DNA of 52,410 bases from Candidatus Dojkabacteria bacterium. Its GTDB lineage: Bacteria; Patescibacteriota; Dojkabacteria; SC72; JAHDCA01. The translations under genes and the position numbers were made by a program. This document shows, one piece after another, positions 11,305 to 38,371 of the stretch. The notes below the pieces were generated by a model that saw only the letters and a list, made by a program, of their open reading frames with translations, was not told the DNA's origin and made no database searches. Position 1 is the stretch's first letter. Each line of letters opens with the position of its first letter. Location of the stretch: positions 1 through 52,410 of the forward strand of contig JALWDW010000008.1 in NCBI GenBank assembly GCA_027036675.1, written 5' to 3'.

Positions 11305-11331
11305 CAACCCGGACTTCGAACACACGTTCTG

Positions 11332-11869
11332 CATTCTAATTCCGATCGCAACAAGTCGGGGTTGAACCCCGGGCTTAAACCCCGGACTTGACAAAGGAAC
11401 CTTATCACCATGGGAATAATCACCAAGAAAATCTTGCGATTAATATTATTTTAATCGAAATTTAATGGCCAACTTACGTTGTCGTATAGGCGTTTACGAG
11501 TGCCCGTCGCTCTGGAGCGCGCATCCCGGGGACTCCGCGTATTCCTTGCAGACATGGCCTTTATCGATATTTTATAGCGACAGCGGACGATATAGCGTAC
11601 CTGAGTATAGGTGCAGAGCATGTTGACGTGTCATCGGTCGTATATTGAGAAAATGTCACTAAGAAAGCTCTGTCGCGACGCACAGTGTGCCGTGAGAACT
11701 GTAATTACGCGACATTTGTATATATCGTATACGCTCTATTTTGCATATTTGGCCGAGCCGAAATCTTGCCAACTATACCTACTACAACAGCGTTGCCACA
11801 CAATCAGTGGGTTCGAAGACCGGGTCGCAACCCCGACTTTGAATACCCGTTGCAATCGGAAATAGAATG
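11332..11869. repeat. element A: ~538-bp ORF-free structured intergenic element (candidate large ncRNA or MITE-like)
   Basis: 21-nt terminal inverted complement (19/21) plus an inner 11-nt perfect complement. Gap-free homology to 22289-22820. Confidence 0.7.
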
Positions 11870-11919
11870 TAGGAATTTGCGGTTCTGCACAACATTTGCG
11901 CAGGTTAAATCAATTTCAC

Positions 11920-18633: not shown

Positions 18634-18706
18634 AGCTGGAAATGAGACTCGAACTCATGACCTACTCTTTACGAAAGAGTTGCTCTACCAACTGAGCTAT
18701 TCCAGC
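18634..18706 (-). tRNA. tRNA-Thr(CGU)
   Basis: GCTGGAATAGCTCAGTTGGTAGAGCA..., anticodon loop TTCGTAA, T arm ATGAG-TTCGAGT-CTCAT. 73 nt. Confidence 0.85.
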
Positions 18707-19654
18707 AAATCATATTTGCCGTCTTTCCTGTCATGCGCGCTTATCGTAACATATTTCTCTGGGGAAGGGAAGAGGGCGGGGGGGGCGACCCCGGGCTTTG
18801 GTAGCATCCTTCGGGCGATAGGATGCGTACTACAGGTTGGTGGCGGTCTAATAGTTTGTTGGGCTGATGGTGTACTTACGGGCTTTGTACGAAGCCTGTA
18901 GCTTTTATTTCACAATTATTGCATGACTCGGCGAAGCCGAGTCATGCAGCCGCGAGTGCACCACTTCGGTAGAAAACGCCCAGAAGTCGGGGGTGAAGTG
19001 CTGCCGAAGAAAATTCGGCTGGCCAAAATATGGCGAAGTCATGGGACGTAGCTGCGTAGTTGAACACGATATCCCATACCTACAGGATAATACGAGACTT
19101 CGTTGATCGTTGCTGTCATGGGATCAGTACGTTTAGTGACAGGATATTTAAGGTAATCCGAGAAAGACAATGACAGACCCGGTTTACATCGTATCTTGCG
19201 TGTGTCCGTATTACCTCATACACAGCCATATCATGATATGGCGATAGTATCCGTGTCATGGGATTTACATGTCCCATCAAAGATTTTATGACGAAATGAC
19301 GTGTGATACCGCCCTTTTTCTTGGACAACAGGTGACATGACGATGATTACGAGTGAATCATGAATTTTGCATAACTAGGGGTGTTGCCATGGTGTTTCTT
19401 CTCTAAGGGTGGGACCCATGGTAGGACCGGAATCCCGGCGTCCATGTACGGCGCGTGTCCAATATACCGATGTACCGGAGTCTGCGCATATACGGGTGAG
19501 TAATGTACCATCAGGACCTTGGCTTGTCGCTGACGCGAATACTCTCGATCGTTTCACGGGGATTTGCGATAGACAATCCTGATCGTAGAGTCGGAGGCTT
19601 CACTGGGTGGGTAAGCGCGACTCCTGGCTGATGACATTAATCACAGGGAATGCC

Positions 19655-21078: not shown

Positions 21079-22281
21079 ATGAGTATTCCGACATTTGGTA
21101 ATCGCAATATTATTATCTTCTATATCTTGACGGTCCTCAAGAATGCATGGTTTATCACCGGCAACTGGATTTTCTTCTGGTCGTTGTACATGACTTATGG
21201 GCAAATGGGGATCCTTGACACGATAGGGTTTCTTTTTGGCATGCTGATGGAGATCCCGACCGGTGGGTTGGCGGATATTATTGGTAGGAAACGAACTTTG
21301 CTTGTATCGTTTTTGTTGTCGGGGATGGGTATATTTGTCATGACGTTTGGCCACGCGTACGCGCCTATGTTTGCCGGGTTTTTGATAGCTCAACTCGGGT
21401 GGGCGCTTTATTCCGGCAGTGCGGAAGCTATGGCTTTTGACAGTCTGGTTGAAATAGATGAAGACAGTCATTTTGACAGGGTTATTTCGTTTGGCACGGC
21501 TTTGGGGGTTGTCGCCACCAGCGCTACGATCTTGGTCGGTACTTGGCTGTACAAATTGAGTCCGCCGTTGCCACATATAGCATGGGGCATGGCCAGCATT
21601 GTTGCACTGCCATTTGTATTCGCAATCAAGGAGCCTGGTGTACGAAGGGACGCTACCTTGGGATTCTCGATGAGACAATATTTGCACCAAATGAGCTTGG
21701 GCGCGAAAAGGCTTATGTCGTCGAGCTTGGTGCCGTATATCGCATTTATATTTACTTTGTCCGGCGCGATGTATATGTTTACCGAGAGTCTTACACGGCC
21801 GGCCGTATCGCTGGAATTGGGATTCGGTCCGACGGCGCAGGGGGTTATATTTACAGTTGCCGGACTGGTGGCGGTGGCGACTTCTCTTAGTGTGCCGTAT
21901 TTGAGAAAGTTTATGAGTGATTTTGTTGGTTTATCTTTGCTCAGCATGACTATGGCTGCAGTCTGGTTGCTGTTGTCTGTGAAGATCGGCGTTTGGGGTG
22001 CCATACCTATCGTGTTGGTTACAGCGGTTGGCAGTATTGGGGTTCCGTGGATATCTATAGCCATCAACAATGAAACTCCGGCCTCGCAGAGGGCCACCAC
22101 GTTGTCTACGGTTTCTTTCGTCGCTTTTATCCCGACCGCTCTGGTGGGGGTATTGGTCGGTCATTTGGCGCAACACGGCCATGTACGATATTTTACGTTT
22201 GCCGTGGCTTGTGTGATCTTTTTGTTGACAGTGGTGAATATGCTTCGGTTTAATACCTCCAGCGTAATTTCCTGGCAGTAA
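21079..22281 (+). CDS. MFS transporter
   Basis: 400 aa, about 12 TM helices. GGLADIIGRKRT motif A-like loop. Confidence 0.8.
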   Translation: MSIPTFGNRNIIIFYILTVLKNAWFITGNWIFFWSLYMTYGQMGILDTIGFLFGMLMEIPTGGLADIIGRKRTLLVSFLLSGMGIFVMTFGHAYAPMFAGFLIAQLGWALYSGSAEAMAFDSLVEIDEDSHFDRVISFGTALGVVATSATILVGTWLYKLSPPLPHIAWGMASIVALPFVFAIKEPGVRRDATLGFSMRQYLHQMSLGAKRLMSSSLVPYIAFIFTLSGAMYMFTESLTRPAVSLELGFGPTAQGVIFTVAGLVAVATSLSVPYLRKFMSDFVGLSLLSMTMAAVWLLLSVKIGVWGAIPIVLVTAVGSIGVPWISIAINNETPASQRATTLSTVSFVAFIPTALVGVLVGHLAQHGHVRYFTFAVACVIFLLTVVNMLRFNTSSVISWQ

Positions 22282-22288
22282 AGCCGAT

Positions 22289-22820
22289 CGCGATCGCTAC
22301 AAGTCGGGGATGAACCCCGGGCTTAAACCCCAGACTTGACATGGAAACCTTATCACCATGGGAATAACCGGCAAGAAAATCTTGCGGTTAATATTATTTT
22401 AATCGGAATTTAATGACCAACTTACTGTGTCGTATAAGCGCTTGTGAGTACCCGTCGCTCTGGAGCGCACATCCTGGGATCTCTGCGTATTCCTTGCAGG
22501 CACGGTTTTTATCGATACTTTGTAGATATGGTAGATGGAACGATGTACCTAAACATACGTACGGAGCGGGTTGCTGTGTTGTCTGCCGTATCTTGAGAAA
22601 ATGTCCCCGAAAAAGCGCCTTTTCAGCGTCTAATGTGCAGTGAGAGCAGTGACCACACGGTATTTGTATATGTCGTATAGGTTCTGTTTTGCACATTAAA
22701 ACTGGGTGACACTTTGTTGACCAGCTGCATTACAACAGCGTTTTCGCCCAATCAGTGGGTATGAAGATCGGGTCCCAACCCCGACGTTGCATGCTCCTTG
22801 CAATCGGAAATAGGATTTAC
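22289..22820. repeat. element B: second copy of the ~530-bp ORF-free element
   Basis: Aligns to 11341-11872 at a constant offset of 10,948 with no indels. Begins right after the MFS stop codon. Confidence 0.7.
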
Positions 22821-22892
22821 GATGTTTTTGTGTAATATAACTTTTATGATATAGTTCGTGTCATCTAAGCTCATATTCACAAAATCGGAGAA

Positions 22893-29648: not shown

Positions 29649-30279
29649 CCGACAGGAGGTCGGGTCAAACTATTGAGTATTGGAAATGGTATGTACATGC
29701 CCCCAGGTTTTGGGATTTACTTCTTCGTCCTCGAATTGACCCTACGGTCGGGGAACTGCGCCTGAGGTATAAGATCTTATCTACTGTCGTAGTGGTCATC
29801 GATCTGTGTGGGTGCTAAATCTTCATTGGAAGATAGCCTATAGAAGAACGTTCTATCGAAGGAAACCTGAGGGGTAAAGCCATCTAGTGACCGAATGATC
29901 AGCTATAGGCCGTGTGTGAAAAACTAGTGACCAGGCGTTCAGTACGAGATTGGCAACTCCTGGAAGTCATACCCCGATAGTCAGTACGGTAACGACCGAG
30001 TGGTTAGTCCATGGTTGATGGTTTCCGGGGCTTATGCATGCAGCTGGTGTGCTGACGACCGGGTGGTCGTCTACGGTACTGTGCATACAAAACCTGCCGA
30101 CCGGGCGGTCAGGCGTAGTGACTGCTGGTGAGTACGAATCTCTGCGAATACGCTGTTTGCGAGCGACCGTGCGTTCACGGTATTCGCTACTTAAAATGGG
30201 ATCCCGATAGTATGGTCGATACAGCGATTCGACATGCTCGTAGTAGTATAAAGCTAAAGTGGCCTAGGTGAGACAACCG
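29649..30279. other. 631-bp ORF-free hairpin-dense spacer between convergent htpX and helD
   Basis: No ORF of 60 aa or more. At least seven GACC-N4-GGTC-like stem-loops and an 8-bp stem (30144-30151 with 30180-30187). Confidence 0.6.
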
Positions 30280-33660: not shown

Positions 33661-34443
33661 ATGAAAAAATATTTAAAAGATAAAGTAGTGTTGCATGGGC
33701 TTCTGGCCCTTCTGGGTTTAGCACTGTTTATATTTTTTCTATTGCCGATGGCAAGCTCGGAAGAATTGCCCGTGGCGACCGATTATACGCAGACATTGCT
33801 TGAAGCCGATAACCCGAAGATCGCACCGCAGGATAAATCGGATAAAACTGATACGACAGGTACCGACAGATCTGCAACAGAGAGCGATACCGATACCGCC
33901 AGGAGGAGGGTAGATGTGGATAATGGATCTGACGAATCTGCAAATAGTACGGATAATGAATCTGCAAGTACCACTGGTACGGACAATACTGACAATCACA
34001 CCAACGACAACACCAACGATATGGTAAAGCATCCGTGGTCTCCGTACGAATACAAATTGGTGACTGTGAAAATAATCAGAAATGGTGATGATGAGCCTCT
34101 GTTGGTCAAAGCTGAATTGGCTGACACGTTGGACAAACAAACATACGGTCTCAAAAATCGGTCAGCAATGGACGAGTCGGAGGGAATGTTGTTCGTTTTC
34201 CCGGAAGAGGTTGAATATGCTTTCATCATGGAAGATATGCAAATACCGCTTGATATCATCTTTATAGACAAGGATGGGTATATTGTAAGTATTATCGAGA
34301 ATATGACACCGTGTGCAGGGTCAGGCGACAAATGTCCTCTATATCATTCATCTGCGCCGTATCTGCGGGTGCTTGAGGTGAATGCCGGGTACGTGAAACG
34401 GCATGGTATAGACGTCGGGGACAAAGTTCGAGTCCTGGACTAA
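33661..34443 (+). CDS. membrane-anchored DUF192-domain protein with low-complexity linker
   Basis: N-terminal TM, Asp/Thr/Asn-rich linker. GLKNRSAMDESEGMLFVF...MQIPLDIIFIDKDGYIV matches the DUF192 pattern. Confidence 0.6.
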   Translation: MKKYLKDKVVLHGLLALLGLALFIFFLLPMASSEELPVATDYTQTLLEADNPKIAPQDKSDKTDTTGTDRSATESDTDTARRRVDVDNGSDESANSTDNESASTTGTDNTDNHTNDNTNDMVKHPWSPYEYKLVTVKIIRNGDDEPLLVKAELADTLDKQTYGLKNRSAMDESEGMLFVFPEEVEYAFIMEDMQIPLDIIFIDKDGYIVSIIENMTPCAGSGDKCPLYHSSAPYLRVLEVNAGYVKRHGIDVGDKVRVLD

Positions 34444-35084
34444 GAGGCTTCAATCGCTTGCATGACGCTTGATACTTTCGCTCCCCAAGTGGTGCATGGC
34501 GGGCAGTAAGACCCTTCTATTGCGTAAGGACTTGTCGCGCCATTGGCATAGTACCTCCCCATACCTCGCGATACGGTATCGATACCTTGCTCCAAGTTGG
34601 CGAAGGTGGCTGCATGTTCTTGTCCGCCCCATCCCCAACAATTGTTGACGCGATATGTGTGGCGGCAACCATTGGATTCGATGATTGAAATTGATGCCAC
34701 AAGCCTATAATCTATCCCATATTCATCGGCTTTCATGACCAATACTTCCGCATAATCGGCCAATGGGGACCCTCTTCGTCTTAAGTACCTTTCCAATTTG
34801 GCAACTTTGACGGGATCGGCATAAAGGTTGCGGACTTTTGGGGATACGTCCTGCTGTACGGCCGAAAGTGCCGAAAACTGCGTATTGACGTCGCCTGTCA
34901 TGGGTAGGGTGCTCAATGTGAAATTGTCGTTGACCTGTGCCGGTTTGGATTGCTCAAGTGTTGCGGAAGACGCGCTGATCGGTGTTGACAGAAGGTCGGA
35001 GATATTGGTGTACAACATCGATACGGTGATGACTGCGACAGCCACCGCAAGTATGTGTTTTTGCCAATTTGATACGTTTTGCAT
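34440..35084 (-). CDS. secreted lytic-transglycosylase-like protein (paralog of 48861-49643)
   Basis: N-terminal TM. YGIDYRLVASISIIESNG (E-S motif), CWGWGG, SYCPPC. Motif order shared with the 260-aa paralog. Confidence 0.45.
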   Translation of the reverse strand: MQNVSNWQKHILAVAVAVITVSMLYTNISDLLSTPISASSATLEQSKPAQVNDNFTLSTLPMTGDVNTQFSALSAVQQDVSPKVRNLYADPVKVAKLERYLRRRGSPLADYAEVLVMKADEYGIDYRLVASISIIESNGCRHTYRVNNCWGWGGQEHAATFANLEQGIDTVSRGMGRYYANGATSPYAIEGSYCPPCTTWGAKVSSVMQAIEAS

Positions 35085-35125
35085 AAGGTTATCGAATGGT
35101 AAATTTACTTATCAAATTACTGGAT

Positions 35126-35134
35126 ATTATACCA
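35126..35134 (-). promoter_or_regulatory. extended -10 TGGTATAAT (minus strand)
   Basis: The minus strand reads TGGTATAAT, 41 nt upstream of the ATG at 35084. Confidence 0.4.
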
Positions 35135-35787
35135 CAAAACAGCCTATAGCGCTACCTAGCAATCGAAGCCGGGGTTGGACCCCAGGCTTGAACCCCGGGC
35201 TTGATGTGAAGGTATTGTTATCGTGAGAATGAAGGGTAGAAAAACAGGATTTTCAGGGGCTTGGCTATAGAAATTGTACAATCGGTTTATATTGTCACAC
35301 CAATCTTTTCAACGCCCTACCACACCGAAGTGAGTGATTTCCCATGACTACAAGGTTTATCCCAGGTTTCAATAGTTTTCCGCTCCCGTAGCGGGTAAGC
35401 CTATGTTTTTTTACATAGTCAAAGTAAGACATAATGACATTGTCCAATGACAACGGGTGTTTTACTTGGGTATGGAGTATTGCGATAACCGCTTTATTTA
35501 TATCTGAGGCTTCGTAAGTCCTACGAGAGGAATTTCGGTAATACTATTTTTTATCTAACAGTCCGGGGGATGCTTTTCTATATAGATGAAAACTTAATGA
35601 AAACTTCACATCCGATGTGAAGTATCAGCAGTGGCACCGCATCCGCAATCGTGGTAGCGACTGTGGGTGCGGTCTTAATGAAAACTTAGTCCTCGTTCCC
35701 CGCCGGGTCGTGAGTTGCCAGTGCTTGAATGTTGCCGGCGGGGCTCGCGATTGCTACTGCAGATGAAAATTTAATGAAAATTTCACG

Positions 35788-35932
35788 TCGGCTGGGGCGC
35801 CCATTATCCGAGGACCTTGACCTGTGGCGTGAGTAGAGCTTTTGTGGGTCCGCGGACTGGTTCCGTTGAGGAAGGTTTCCTTCGCGGATGAAGATTTAAA
35901 GCCTCCGGCGTAATTCCCCGACCGTAAGGTCG
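35788..35932 (+). repeat. 145-bp direct repeat, copy 1
   Basis: Identical to 36178-36322 except at 3 positions. Confidence 0.9.
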
Positions 35933-36177
35933 ATTGGGGATGAAGTAGCTCCCAAATCGTCAGGACGATGTGCTGAAGGTTGCTCAGCGGATTGCAGTAT
36001 GTCGATTTACCTGTGTGTAATGTATGTATGTTGTACTCGAAGCTACGGCATGATATGCGTTGAGAATAAATTTACATTCGGCAGTATTTTGGACGTTGAC
36101 GATATTCGAAAGATTTGGGACAAACGAAGTTTGTAAAGTCGATACCCCGACCGGCAGGTCGTGGGAGAGGCTTCATC

Positions 36178-36322
36178 TCGGCTGGGGCGCCCATTATCCG
36201 AGGACCTTGACCTGTGGCGTGAGTAGAGCTTTTGTGGGTCCGCGGACTGGTTCCGTTGAGGAAGGTTTCCTTCGCGGATGAAGATTTAACGCCTCCGGCG
36301 TAATCCCACGACCGTAAGGTCG
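36178..36322 (+). repeat. 145-bp direct repeat, copy 2
   Basis: Same as copy 1, 390 bp downstream. Differences are A/C, T/C and C/A near the 3' end. Confidence 0.9.
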
Positions 36323-36619
36323 GGGGACTGTAGTTGCGACCGCAGGTTGAAGCACGTCCTTCAATAATAGGCTCTGTCATTGGGATAAACCAATACAGGT
36401 AAGACAGTGTATTGCCATCAACTCCCGTCCATCCGGTATCGGTTGGGCGACTCCTCAAAGCCCACTGTCATTGTACAGAAGGTGTATTTGCCTACGTCCA
36501 GCCTTTTTGAGCCATCACCGGAAATCACGAATTCCGGGCCATGCAGCCTGTGGCCACAGTGCTTTGTCTCAAAGGGTGGGTTCCCATCCCGGGGTCGAGG
36601 CCAGGCTTCGCATTCCTTA

Positions 36620-36628
36620 TGATATAAT
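36620..36628 (+). promoter_or_regulatory. extended -10 TGATATAAT immediately upstream of proS
   Basis: TATAAT ends 9 nt before ATG 36638, which implies a leaderless or near-leaderless mRNA. Confidence 0.45.
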
Positions 36629-36637
36629 TTCTCCATT

Positions 36638-38371
36638 ATGAAATATTCAAAACTCTTTGGGAAAACATTGCGAAGTGTAAAGAAAGATATCGTTCTTGAT
36701 TCTCACCGTCTTCTGTACCAAGGTGGCTTCATAAGGGAATTGAGCGCCGGCAGGTATGAATTTTTGCCTCTGGGTCTCAGAGTGCAACAAAAGATAATCG
36801 ACTTGATCGACAAGGAAATGGAAAAGATCGGCTCGCAACGGATGAGCATACCGATTTTGCAACCACTCAAGATATGGCAAAAGACAAATAGAGACGGGGT
36901 ATGGGGTAGTTCGCTGATGCGATTGACCGACCGCAACAATACTGAATTTGCGCTAAGCGCGACCGGAGAAGGCGTGGTGACCGAGATGGTGGCCCGTTCC
37001 AACCCGACATATAAGGATTTGCCCGTGACATTGCATCAATTTATCATGAAGTTTCGCGACGAATTGCGACCTCGCGGAGGGTTGATCAGGGTGCGCGAAT
37101 TTATCATGAAAGATGCTTATTCGTATCATACTACTGAAGAAGATTTGATGGAAACGTACGAAGATTTCCACGCTGCGTATACAAGGATCTTCGACAGATT
37201 GGACTTGCCTGACGTTTACCCGGTCATAGCGGATAGTGGTGCTCTTGGAGGAGCGTACTCGCATGAATTCCAGATGATCTCGGATGCGGGAGAGGATAAA
37301 TTTGTGAAGTGTGATACTTGCGATTATGCCGCAAATGTGGAAAAAGCCGTATTTGAGAGGGAATCAGTGAATGAGGATCAGGAACTGAAGGAATATGAGG
37401 TGGTTGAATTACCTGCTGAAGTTTGTACCATGAAGCAATTGGAAGAACATTACGGACTGCCTCCGGAAAATTACATCAAAAATGTGATGTACAAGGCGGG
37501 AGATGGTACGTTGATCATAGCGACCGTGACCGGTAATTTGGATGTAAATGAGGTTAAGTTGACCAATGCGGTCGGCAAGGGCCCTCTGGAGATGGCGGAT
37601 GATGAAGATTTGAATTCCATCGGTAGCAAACACGGATACTTGCACTCGTGGGGATATGACGAACACAAAGATCGCATCATTTATGTTGTGGATTTGTCCC
37701 TGAAGAAGGCTCGCAACCTGTATGGTGGTTACAAAACGGATACGACAGATCCGATCAATGTAAATTATCCGAGGGACTTCCAAGCGGATATAGAGGCGGA
37801 TATAGCGGAAAGTCCGGAGGGGGCAAAATGTGCTCAATGCAAAGATGGCCATTTACATATACGCAAATCTATAGAGCTGGGACATATATTCAAATACGAT
37901 CATTTTTACACCAAAGCGCATGATGCCAAGTTTGTCGATAAGGATGGGAAAAACAAATATATGTGGAGCGGTGCTTACGGTATCGGGATCGGTCGAGCGA
38001 TGGCGGCGTCAGTTGAAGCTCACCACGATGATGCCGGGATCGTATGGCCTGCAGTGATAGCGCCTTACCATGTGCATCTCGTGCAGTTGGGAGACAATGC
38101 GGAAATCACTGAGTATGCGGAGTCTTTGTATTCAAAGCTCAGGGAAGCCGGTGTGGAGGTGTTGTGGGATGACAGGACTGATGTATCGGCTGGAGTGAAA
38201 TTTGCAGATGCGGATCTGATCGGCAATCCTATACGAGTTGTTGTCTCCGCGAGGGGGATGGACAAAGGTACGGTTGAGGTTAAGAAGCGGGGTGAGCAAA
38301 AGAGCAAGGATGTGAAACTTGACCGGGCGGTAGAGGAGGTCCGGAAGATATTGGAAGAACTATTGAAATAG
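36638..38371 (+). CDS. proS: prolyl-tRNA synthetase (bacterial type)
   Basis: SHRLLYQGGFIRELSAGRYEFLPLG, FRDELRPRGGLIRVREFIMKDAYSYH (class II motif 2), C-terminal anticodon-binding domain. Confidence 0.9.
   Translation: MKYSKLFGKTLRSVKKDIVLDSHRLLYQGGFIRELSAGRYEFLPLGLRVQQKIIDLIDKEMEKIGSQRMSIPILQPLKIWQKTNRDGVWGSSLMRLTDRNNTEFALSATGEGVVTEMVARSNPTYKDLPVTLHQFIMKFRDELRPRGGLIRVREFIMKDAYSYHTTEEDLMETYEDFHAAYTRIFDRLDLPDVYPVIADSGALGGAYSHEFQMISDAGEDKFVKCDTCDYAANVEKAVFERESVNEDQELKEYEVVELPAEVCTMKQLEEHYGLPPENYIKNVMYKAGDGTLIIATVTGNLDVNEVKLTNAVGKGPLEMADDEDLNSIGSKHGYLHSWGYDEHKDRIIYVVDLSLKKARNLYGGYKTDTTDPINVNYPRDFQADIEADIAESPEGAKCAQCKDGHLHIRKSIELGHIFKYDHFYTKAHDAKFVDKDGKNKYMWSGAYGIGIGRAMAASVEAHHDDAGIVWPAVIAPYHVHLVQLGDNAEITEYAESLYSKLREAGVEVLWDDRTDVSAGVKFADADLIGNPIRVVVSARGMDKGTVEVKKRGEQKSKDVKLDRAVEEVRKILEELLK

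Follow-up and report, generated by a model that had tools for sequence, protein, structure and literature searches.

A 1.45-kb hairpin-rich insertion upstream of proS in a Dojkabacteria contig, most likely the largest known representative of a non-coding repeat family specific to one species

The stretch of DNA analysed here (the window) is a contig of 52,410 nucleotides (52.4 kb) from Candidatus Dojkabacteria bacterium (GenBank assembly GCA_027036675.1, contig JALWDW010000008.1), with a GC content of ~46%, a GC skew that is positive throughout and an ordinary set of housekeeping genes, among them those encoding IleS, FtsW, L21, L27, ParAB, signal peptidase, MnmA, ProS, iPGM and L19. Our subject is the block at 35085-36637 (1553 nt), located between a gene for a 214-aa protein (34440-35084, minus strand) and proS (36638-38371), whose product carries the Pfam domains tRNA-synt_2b, tRNA_edit and HGTP_anticodon and has its best named relatives in Dojkabacteria and other Patescibacteria. 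An earlier note, made from the sequence alone, had singled out this block as the largest non-coding stretch of the window, and had proposed that it is apparently an expanded member of a family including two other blocks, A and B, and could be either a structured RNA of very large size or a composite made up of decayed elements. The block is indeed the largest gap of the window free of open reading frames (ORFs), the next one measuring 948 nt. Its longest stop-to-stop frame spans 131 aa, none of its ten longest frames gave a Pfam match at E<=0.1, and it is without a credible ORF. Hereafter, D denotes the insertion upstream of proS, A, B, C and E are other blocks of the window, and F is a copy upstream of the window, exposed when the contig was extended via neighbouring proteins; this extension gained 4.7 kb upstream (contig L023) and nothing downstream, and the family search covered the ~57 kb of genome made up by the window and L023.

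The locus of the closest available relative (L005; ProS 75% identical, different genus-level group) shows the same gene order as the window (mnmA, a DUF192 gene, a 222-aa gene and proS), with an intergenic region of only ~221 nt. Both sequences align up to 35151, including the minus-strand extended -10, and the alignment resumes at ~36607 (TTCGCA...), including the extended -10 of proS; between these aligned flanks there are ~1455 nt in the window and ~85 unrelated bases in L005. The junctions of the insertion lie at most ~12 nt from two inverted modules, 35164-35196 and 36578-36610. Lack of conservation in relatives had been set beforehand as an outcome speaking against a structured RNA, and D is absent at the orthologous site of L005. 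The promoter-like elements described for both flanking genes at the extreme edges of the block were found in place, on the minus strand at 35126-35134 and, for proS, at 36620-36628. The proS extended -10 ends 9-10 nt before the ATG both here (36620-36640) and in L005 (2915-2942), with no Shine-Dalgarno sequence, which suggests a leaderless proS mRNA. Because this box lies downstream of D, 9 nt from the ATG, the proS mRNA should start downstream of D, and since the extended -10 boxes of both flanking genes are conserved and lie outside D, the block is not their leader. A cis-regulatory leader of proS, such as a T-box or riboswitch, was likewise rejected, as the conserved -10 lies 3' of D and no T-box or riboswitch match was obtained. 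The block comprises the following features:

35085-35151, minus strand: native intergenic DNA with the promoter of the 214-aa gene (extended -10 TGGTATAAT, 35126-35134), homologous to L005 up to CCTATAGCG (35143-35151).
35152-36606, plus strand: inserted non-coding block D, ~1455 nt, where L005 has ~85 unrelated bases.
35164-35204, plus strand: left terminal module, 2.8 tandem copies of the 13-nt unit CCGGGCTTGAACC.
35205-35253, plus strand: sub-terminal stretch with weak homology to A/B and F.
35584-35617, plus strand: copy 1 of M1, an A-rich 34-nt repeat with the tandem 11-mer ATGAAAACTTA, continuing into a 10-bp hairpin (35603-35623).
35636-35743: hairpin island with the stems 35636-35644/35665-35673 and 35698-35706/35735-35743 and a partial M1 (35676-35690).
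35761-35794, plus strand: M1 copy 2, 85% identical to copy 1.
35782-35949, plus strand: copy 1 of the direct repeat R, ~169 nt.
35880-35944, plus strand: copy 1 of Mod, composed of GATGAAGATTTAA, then GCCTCCGGCGTAAT, then the palindrome CCCCGACC-GTAA-GGTCG.
36145-36166: third GACC-NNNN-GGTC palindrome, CCCCGACCGGCAGGTCGTGGGA, complementary to 36304-36325.
36172-36337, plus strand: R copy 2, 93% identical to copy 1.
36270-36332, plus strand: Mod copy 2.
36370-36610, plus strand: 3' domain homologous to F (L023 526-763).
36578-36610, plus strand: right terminal module, a homologue of the A, B and F right ends with 73% complementarity to 35164-35196.
36607-36637, plus strand: native proS promoter region with the extended -10 TGATATAAT (36620-36628), positionally conserved in L005 (TGTTAGAAT).

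The relationship of D to the blocks A and B resides in its ends. As the earlier note had claimed, an A/B module occupies the 5' end, the left module of D being 87% identical to A 11353-11391 and homologous as well to the left end of B, and the 3' end resembles that of A. The two short complementary motifs quoted for these ends, TCGAAGCC (35163-35170) and GGCTTCG (36604-36610), are also present. The pattern GRACCCCRGGCTTRAACCCCRGRCTTGA matched A, B and D only, with 0 matches expected by chance, and a profile built from the six ends of these blocks matched nothing in the window but these ends themselves (E 1e-14 to 7e-19), recognising in addition one end of F (E 8e-09). Positions 11-89 of an A/B profile matched D at 35166-35243 (E 3.7e-08). 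In A and B the left end is a 13-nt tandem repeat, as in the left module of D, and the right end repeats the left one in inverted and diverged form, which in A extends to 53 matches over ~65 nt, including the non-palindromic outer part CATTCTAWTTCCGATYGCAAC. When left ends were compared with reverse-complemented right ends, 53, 46 and 43 positions matched in A, B and D, respectively; the best inverted partners of D are the 33-nt stretches 35164-35196 and 36578-36610. Judged from these alignments, family members end in inverted modules that match imperfectly, measure ~45-65 bp and consist of 13-bp sub-repeats. A (~11331-11876) and B (~22285-22826), each of ~545 nt, are 77% identical overall. The view of D as an expanded member of the A/B family is thus borne out for the shared ends and not for the interior, since the interiors of D and A/B are unrelated.

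The copy F (L023 1-770), ~4 kb upstream of window position 1, is closer to D. Contig L023 starts inside the 13-mer module of F, its first 73 nt (L023 1-73) are 64% identical to the sub-terminal stretch of D (35205-35253), and F carries Mod at L023 58-118 (CCTCCGGCGTAAT, then the palindrome CCCCGACC-GTAA-GGT). The last 240 nt of F (L023 526-763) align with D 36370-36610 at 62% identity over 245 nt (E 2e-12). F stops 2 nt short of the extended -10 of the next gene (TGGTATACT), the corresponding gap between D and the proS -10 being 9 nt. By these similarities F is a sixth, D-like member of the family. A 96-aa gene called inside F has no Pfam match and is probably spurious. Block E (18707-19654), 948 nt without ORFs flanked by the minus-strand tRNA gene at 18634-18706 and by a TetR gene, has no Rfam match and is self-complementary beyond expectation (z -4.2 on the plus strand and -3.0 on the minus strand). 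Its ends show weak collinear similarity to the end modules of D, A and B (18781-18800 and 19382-19442), and the 3' domain of D, near its end, weakly matches E 19382-19419 (77%); E probably represents a member of the family in decay. The ~57 kb harbour A, B, D, F and probably E, and shared non-coding modules take up ~8% of this sequence; the oriented copies (F, A, E, B and D) are all on the plus strand and four out of five end just upstream of a plus-strand gene. D is most likely the largest known member of a species-specific family composed of A, B, D, F and probably E.

The interior of D contains R twice (~169 nt, 93% identical), M1 two to three times and Mod twice. Mod appears also in block C (29726-29782, minus strand), in F, and as a partial copy at 22248-22289, beside B. 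The palindrome GACCNNNNGGTC occurs at nine window sites (19722, 20242, 29738, 30057, 30099, 32591, 35920, 36149 and 36310) against 0.63 expected from shuffles, a 14-fold enrichment; seven of these sites fall outside genes, in non-coding blocks, while the TetR gene and mnmA account for the remaining two. The linker motif GATGAARAYTTAA is found four times in D, whereas 0.43 matches would be expected in the whole window. The strong stems reported from the interior exist, namely ACCGCATCC (35636-35644) with GGGTGCGGT (35665-35673), 9 bp including one G-U, and CCCCGCCGG (35698-35706) with CCGGCGGGG (35735-35743), as do the two CGACC-GTAA-GGTCG hairpins, at 35919-35933 and 36309-36323. These two hairpins are, however, not independent, because both come from one internal 169-nt duplication. 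Among the GACC-NNNN-GGTC copies the stem is constant and the loop variable (GTAA, GGCA, GTAG, GCCC and ACCC), the opposite of the usual RNA pattern. Such a pattern marks the hairpin as a repeated palindrome and not as a selected tetraloop. We call D a mosaic rather than a single folded unit because its interior appears to have grown by duplication and by gain of palindromic modules. The notion of a composite of decayed elements therefore comes close to the evidence, in that D combines terminal modules of the A/B family with an interior mosaic of duplicated and shared modules. A template/variable repeat pair of a diversity-generating retroelement was considered for the two R copies and rejected, for want of a reverse transcriptase and because the copies do not differ specifically at adenines.

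Exact-protein look-ups retrieved conspecific contigs with 99.8-100% identity to the window, originating from five further assemblies or samples. Every conspecific assembly spanning B, C or D contains them, collinear and in the same orientation, and no single-nucleotide polymorphism (SNP) was found in D, with 12 SNPs in 6960 nt of flanks and ~2.7 expected in D. D is fixed and stable in the species. Several conspecific contigs end at the internal repeat R, not at the inverted ends.

Hairpin density, as asserted in the earlier note, is a genuine property of the block. The minimum free energy of the plus strand was -528.6, compared with -476.3 +/- 11.2 for dinucleotide shuffles (z -4.7), and the minus strand reached z -5.5; three coding controls of the same length ranged from z -0.03 to -1.5. 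The excess is concentrated in islands (35550-35750, 36200-36450 and 35100-35250), with z near 0 elsewhere in the block; the segment 35575-35800 alone folds with z -4.9, and F as a whole shows no excess (z -0.2). An excess symmetrical between strands (z -4.7 and -5.5) is the expectation for Watson-Crick palindromes in DNA. When the left and right ends of each of A, B and D were paired, the mismatches comprised 2, 1 and 2 G-U pairs, 2, 5 and 2 A-C pairs, and 6, 8 and 12 non-pairing positions, respectively. On this count, the complementarity between 5' and 3' ends is that of a decaying inverted repeat, not of a selected helix. Nor did paralogues covary beyond chance. For A/B, alifold gave z -1.5 and counted 8 compensatory pairs where 8.2 were expected from column shuffles, and for the 3' domain shared by D and F z -1.5 with 7 compensatory pairs against 10.5 expected, each from two sequences and hence with limited power. 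The Rfam search suggested by the earlier note (Rfam 15, including the models of RNase P, tmRNA, 6S, SRP, ROOL, GOLLD and OLE) returned no match to D at gathering score, nor did other Rfam 15 models including HEARO, T-box and group I/II introns. The best sub-threshold match in D was to group-II-D1D4-3, which scored 17.2 bits (threshold 32 bits; E 1.3) and was limited to one hairpin, and searches of the block, the whole window and F at gathering score and permissive E-values (E<=5 for the block) recovered tRNAs and noise only. Sigma-70-like promoters and canonical terminators in D did not exceed shuffle expectation (terminator-like sites, 2 versus 2.0).

Taken together, these data appear to describe a non-autonomous non-coding repeat with ends like those of a miniature inverted-repeat transposable element (MITE) and a mosaic interior like that of BIME or BOX elements, a reading to which we would give about an even chance of being correct. 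In such a scenario, the element would have arrived, or been assembled, between the promoters from which the 214-aa gene and proS are divergently transcribed, disrupting nothing and leaving both promoters in place at its edges. The interior would then have been enlarged by segmental duplication (169 nt twice and 34 nt two to three times) and would have gained short palindromic modules found in other intergenic blocks. Mobilisation may have occurred in trans, by a transposase or recombinase encoded elsewhere and recognising the 13-bp sub-repeats, which would be putative protein-binding sites. Any present function might consist of hairpins acting on transcripts that enter D, or of insulation of the two promoters.

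Several observations weigh against this interpretation. L005 is the sole outgroup and a distant one, and loss of the block in its lineage is formally possible. Among the conspecific assemblies (five samples) there was neither presence/absence nor orientation polymorphism, and no sign of recent movement or inversion. No target-site duplication was seen by inspection of the borders of A, B and D, whose exact ends are uncertain since the outer repeat is decayed. Neither the 52-kb window nor the 4.7 kb upstream encodes a transposase, integrase or reverse transcriptase, and no autonomous copy with the same ends was detected in the window or the fetched loci. At 1.45 kb, D exceeds the typical size of a MITE. 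Conservation between A and B is uneven, dropping from 87% over the initial 235 nt to 71% in the middle, which hints at some constraint, and the uniform plus orientation of the copies is not predicted for a purely selfish element, though the numbers are too small for significance.

The main alternative raised at the outset was that the plus strand of D is transcribed into a single very large structured non-coding RNA or into a number of smaller ones, with the end modules pairing as a closing or processing stem, in the way that stems cleaved by RNase III flank rRNA precursors, and with functional interior hairpins. The strong self-complementarity of the block and particularly of 35575-35800, sliding-window z values slightly lower on the plus than on the minus strand in most hairpin islands, the plus orientation of all five oriented copies, the perfect conservation of D among conspecific strains and the fact that 1.5 kb of junk would be unexpected in a compact genome are all consistent with such an RNA. 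On the other hand, no Rfam model matches D, the orthologous site of L005 lacks it, covariation is missing in both A/B and D/F, and the terminal mismatches are mostly non-pairing, without G-U bias. Over the whole block the minus strand folds at least as strongly as the plus strand, F folds like its shuffles, promoters and terminators do not exceed chance, and the GNRA-like hairpins trace back to one duplication, their loops varying in other copies around a constant stem. The claim of a very large structured RNA thus finds no support, in view of the absence of Rfam matches, the empty site in L005, the lack of paralogue covariation and the decaying inverted repeat at the ends. By these analyses the positive evidence for a large conserved structured RNA is removed, and transcription of D remains compatible with the results; we consider this explanation unlikely. 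A related proposal, which we find unlikely and put slightly lower, is that A, B, D, E and F would be lineage-specific, large modular non-coding RNA genes on the leading strand, their ends forming a processing stem and their variable interiors presenting GC-rich hairpin arrays, with an A-rich linker between the hairpins, that might serve an ultra-small Patescibacteria cell as a protein sponge or scaffold, to name one example. Alternatively, the repeat might have been domesticated for a host function at the DNA or RNA level, as protein-binding palindromes or as minus-strand terminators or insulators consisting of a hairpin plus a U-rich tract. Its location exactly between two conserved divergent promoters fits this idea, and so do the four copies of GATGAARAYTTAA, which on the minus strand place a U-rich tract after each GC-rich hairpin (one of them called terminator-like), the 14-fold enrichment of GACCNNNNGGTC and the invariance of D among strains. 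Nevertheless, no upstream minus-strand gene is in need of termination, terminator-like sites are as frequent in shuffles, zero SNPs against ~2.7 expected are weak evidence of constraint, and no candidate binding protein was found. Domestication is in our opinion improbable, though worth bearing in mind.

Inverted repeats bounding a segment directly upstream of genes, with one repeat consensus at several loci as in the case of global invertases, could also indicate an inverton, that is, a phase-variation switch flipped at its inverted ends by a site-specific recombinase and controlling proS or the 214-aa gene. This seems extremely improbable, given that all assemblies spanning D or B display a single orientation, contigs break at R instead of at the inverted ends, no recombinase gene exists in the 57 kb, the promoters of both flanking genes lie outside the segment, the ends are only 73% complementary, and phase variation of an essential tRNA ligase is implausible. 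Decayed coding DNA, such as a pseudogene, an insertion sequence or a prophage remnant, would account for the insertion-sequence-like size and the inverted ends, and gene callers do place a 72-aa ORF on the minus strand (36418-36636). Resolution into pseudogene fragments was a further outcome which the earlier note had named as refuting its proposal, and none were found by Pfam, tblastn or protein search. Tblastn of D against the rest of the window and the relatives' loci revealed nothing beyond the end modules, the longest frame had no match among 5.8 billion proteins, and blastn against phage and plasmid collections was negative; moreover, the interior is made of short repeats and hairpins. 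A coding origin is accordingly very unlikely. Translated frames of D (36075-36467, minus strand) and of B likewise found no real relative among billions of predicted proteins, a match to the tandem-repeat protein P0121 from the frame-translation search being spurious. A small conserved ORF in A and B (MANLRC.../MTNLLC...) was discarded, as A and B differ from each other mostly by non-synonymous changes and have their stops at different positions, and a replication origin, considered since parAB lies nearby, was dismissed on the monotonic cumulative GC skew across the window.

Coming back to the non-autonomous repeat, its closest counterparts combine features of two known groups. MITEs, such as the Correia elements of Neisseria, pneumococcal RUP and cyanobacterial Nezha, are like the present family in being non-coding, in having several diverged intergenic copies that share imperfect terminal inverted repeats, and in that the interiors of subfamilies may differ; the absence of D from the orthologous site of a relative may be a further likeness. 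In contrast to MITEs, the family yielded no recognisable target-site duplication and showed no insertion polymorphism within the species, neither a parent insertion sequence nor a transposase turned up, and the family ends are long (45-65 bp) and made of 13-bp sub-repeats. MITEs are usually smaller than ~0.6-0.8 kb, a size that suits A and B (~545 nt), whereas D (~1455 nt) is too large. The REP/BIME of E. coli, pneumococcal BOX (boxA-boxB(n)-boxC) and the Rickettsia palindromic elements resemble the family in their modular construction from short palindromes and linkers, with modules varying in order, number and orientation between intergenic sites, complementary end modules and strand-symmetric hairpins; as in the Rickettsia elements, a copy of a family module enters a coding 3' end, that of the major facilitator superfamily (MFS) gene beside B. 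Unlike these elements, the family shows no sequence similarity to their units and its blocks are much longer than a typical BIME or BOX. RAYT-type transposases are the enzymes linked to REP elements, and none was seen in the ~57 kb covered. With OLE, GOLLD and ROOL the family shares long, ORF-free, intergenic and hairpin-rich sequences, as well as the vicinity of tRNA genes in A and E, since GOLLD and ROOL often adjoin such genes; it departs from them by the lack of a covariance-model match, the restriction to one species, the lack of paralogue covariation and an interior of recent duplications.

Genomes of Patescibacteria (candidate phyla radiation, CPR) are regarded as streamlined and repeat-poor, and our search of the literature on repeats or large RNAs in Patescibacteria found nothing relevant. 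An ORF-free mosaic family without counterpart in public data would indicate that selfish or domesticated non-coding repeats can expand even in reduced genomes, and provides a concrete case in which to study the enzyme that would recognise the 13-bp sub-repeats and any effect of the hairpin arrays on neighbouring promoters. Blocks of the D type break metagenome assemblies, as seen from the several contigs ending at the internal repeat, and can pass for giant structured RNAs. Before D is listed as a candidate RNA family, evidence of a transcript should be required.

The end module and Mod gave no matches in metagenome and viral contig collections. In a genome collection, only three unrelated GC-rich loci with a tandem GAACCCCGGGCTT were recovered, and they were rejected as relatives of the family. 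These intergenic loci (L002 3591-3640, L003 811-850 and L004 5470-5525, from Gemmatimonadota, bacterium HR33 and Lysobacterales) carry nearly the same 13-mer in two to three tandem copies, with the hairpin GCGCCCGGGGTC next to it in two of the three. Their likeness is tentatively taken to be convergence or slippage of terminator arms.

Other observations concern the modules and the neighbouring sequences. The linker motif reads as a recurring three-codon mini-ORF, ATG-AAR-AYT-TAR (Met-Lys-Ile/Thr-stop), at 35585, 35681, 35763, 35889, 36279 and, on the minus strand, 29813-29826, with no obvious ribosome-binding site; its similarity to the lambda bar minigenes is one of form only. The partial Mod at 22248-22289 (AATACCTCCAGCGTAAT...), immediately adjacent to B on its left side, supplies the MFS transporter gene with its final ~11 codons and its stop; the repeat seems to have taken the place of the C-terminus of this gene. 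Within proS, the stretch 37457-37498 (42 nt) is replaced in GCA_027021945.1 (L017) by ~10 nt, which splits proS into two ORFs, and an ENA contig from a different sample (L028) ends at 37499; judging by these contigs, this is a strain-variable or misassembled spot. Block C (29649-30279), 631 nt without ORFs between convergent M48 peptidase and UvrD-like helicase genes, harbours Mod on the opposite strand and several GACC-NNNN-GGTC hairpins. In L016, from another sample, 21 of the 24 mismatches to the window fall within 29935-30277, mostly transitions, a divergence of ~6% versus ~0.1% in the flanking genes, and this clustering suggests recombination or gene conversion in block C.

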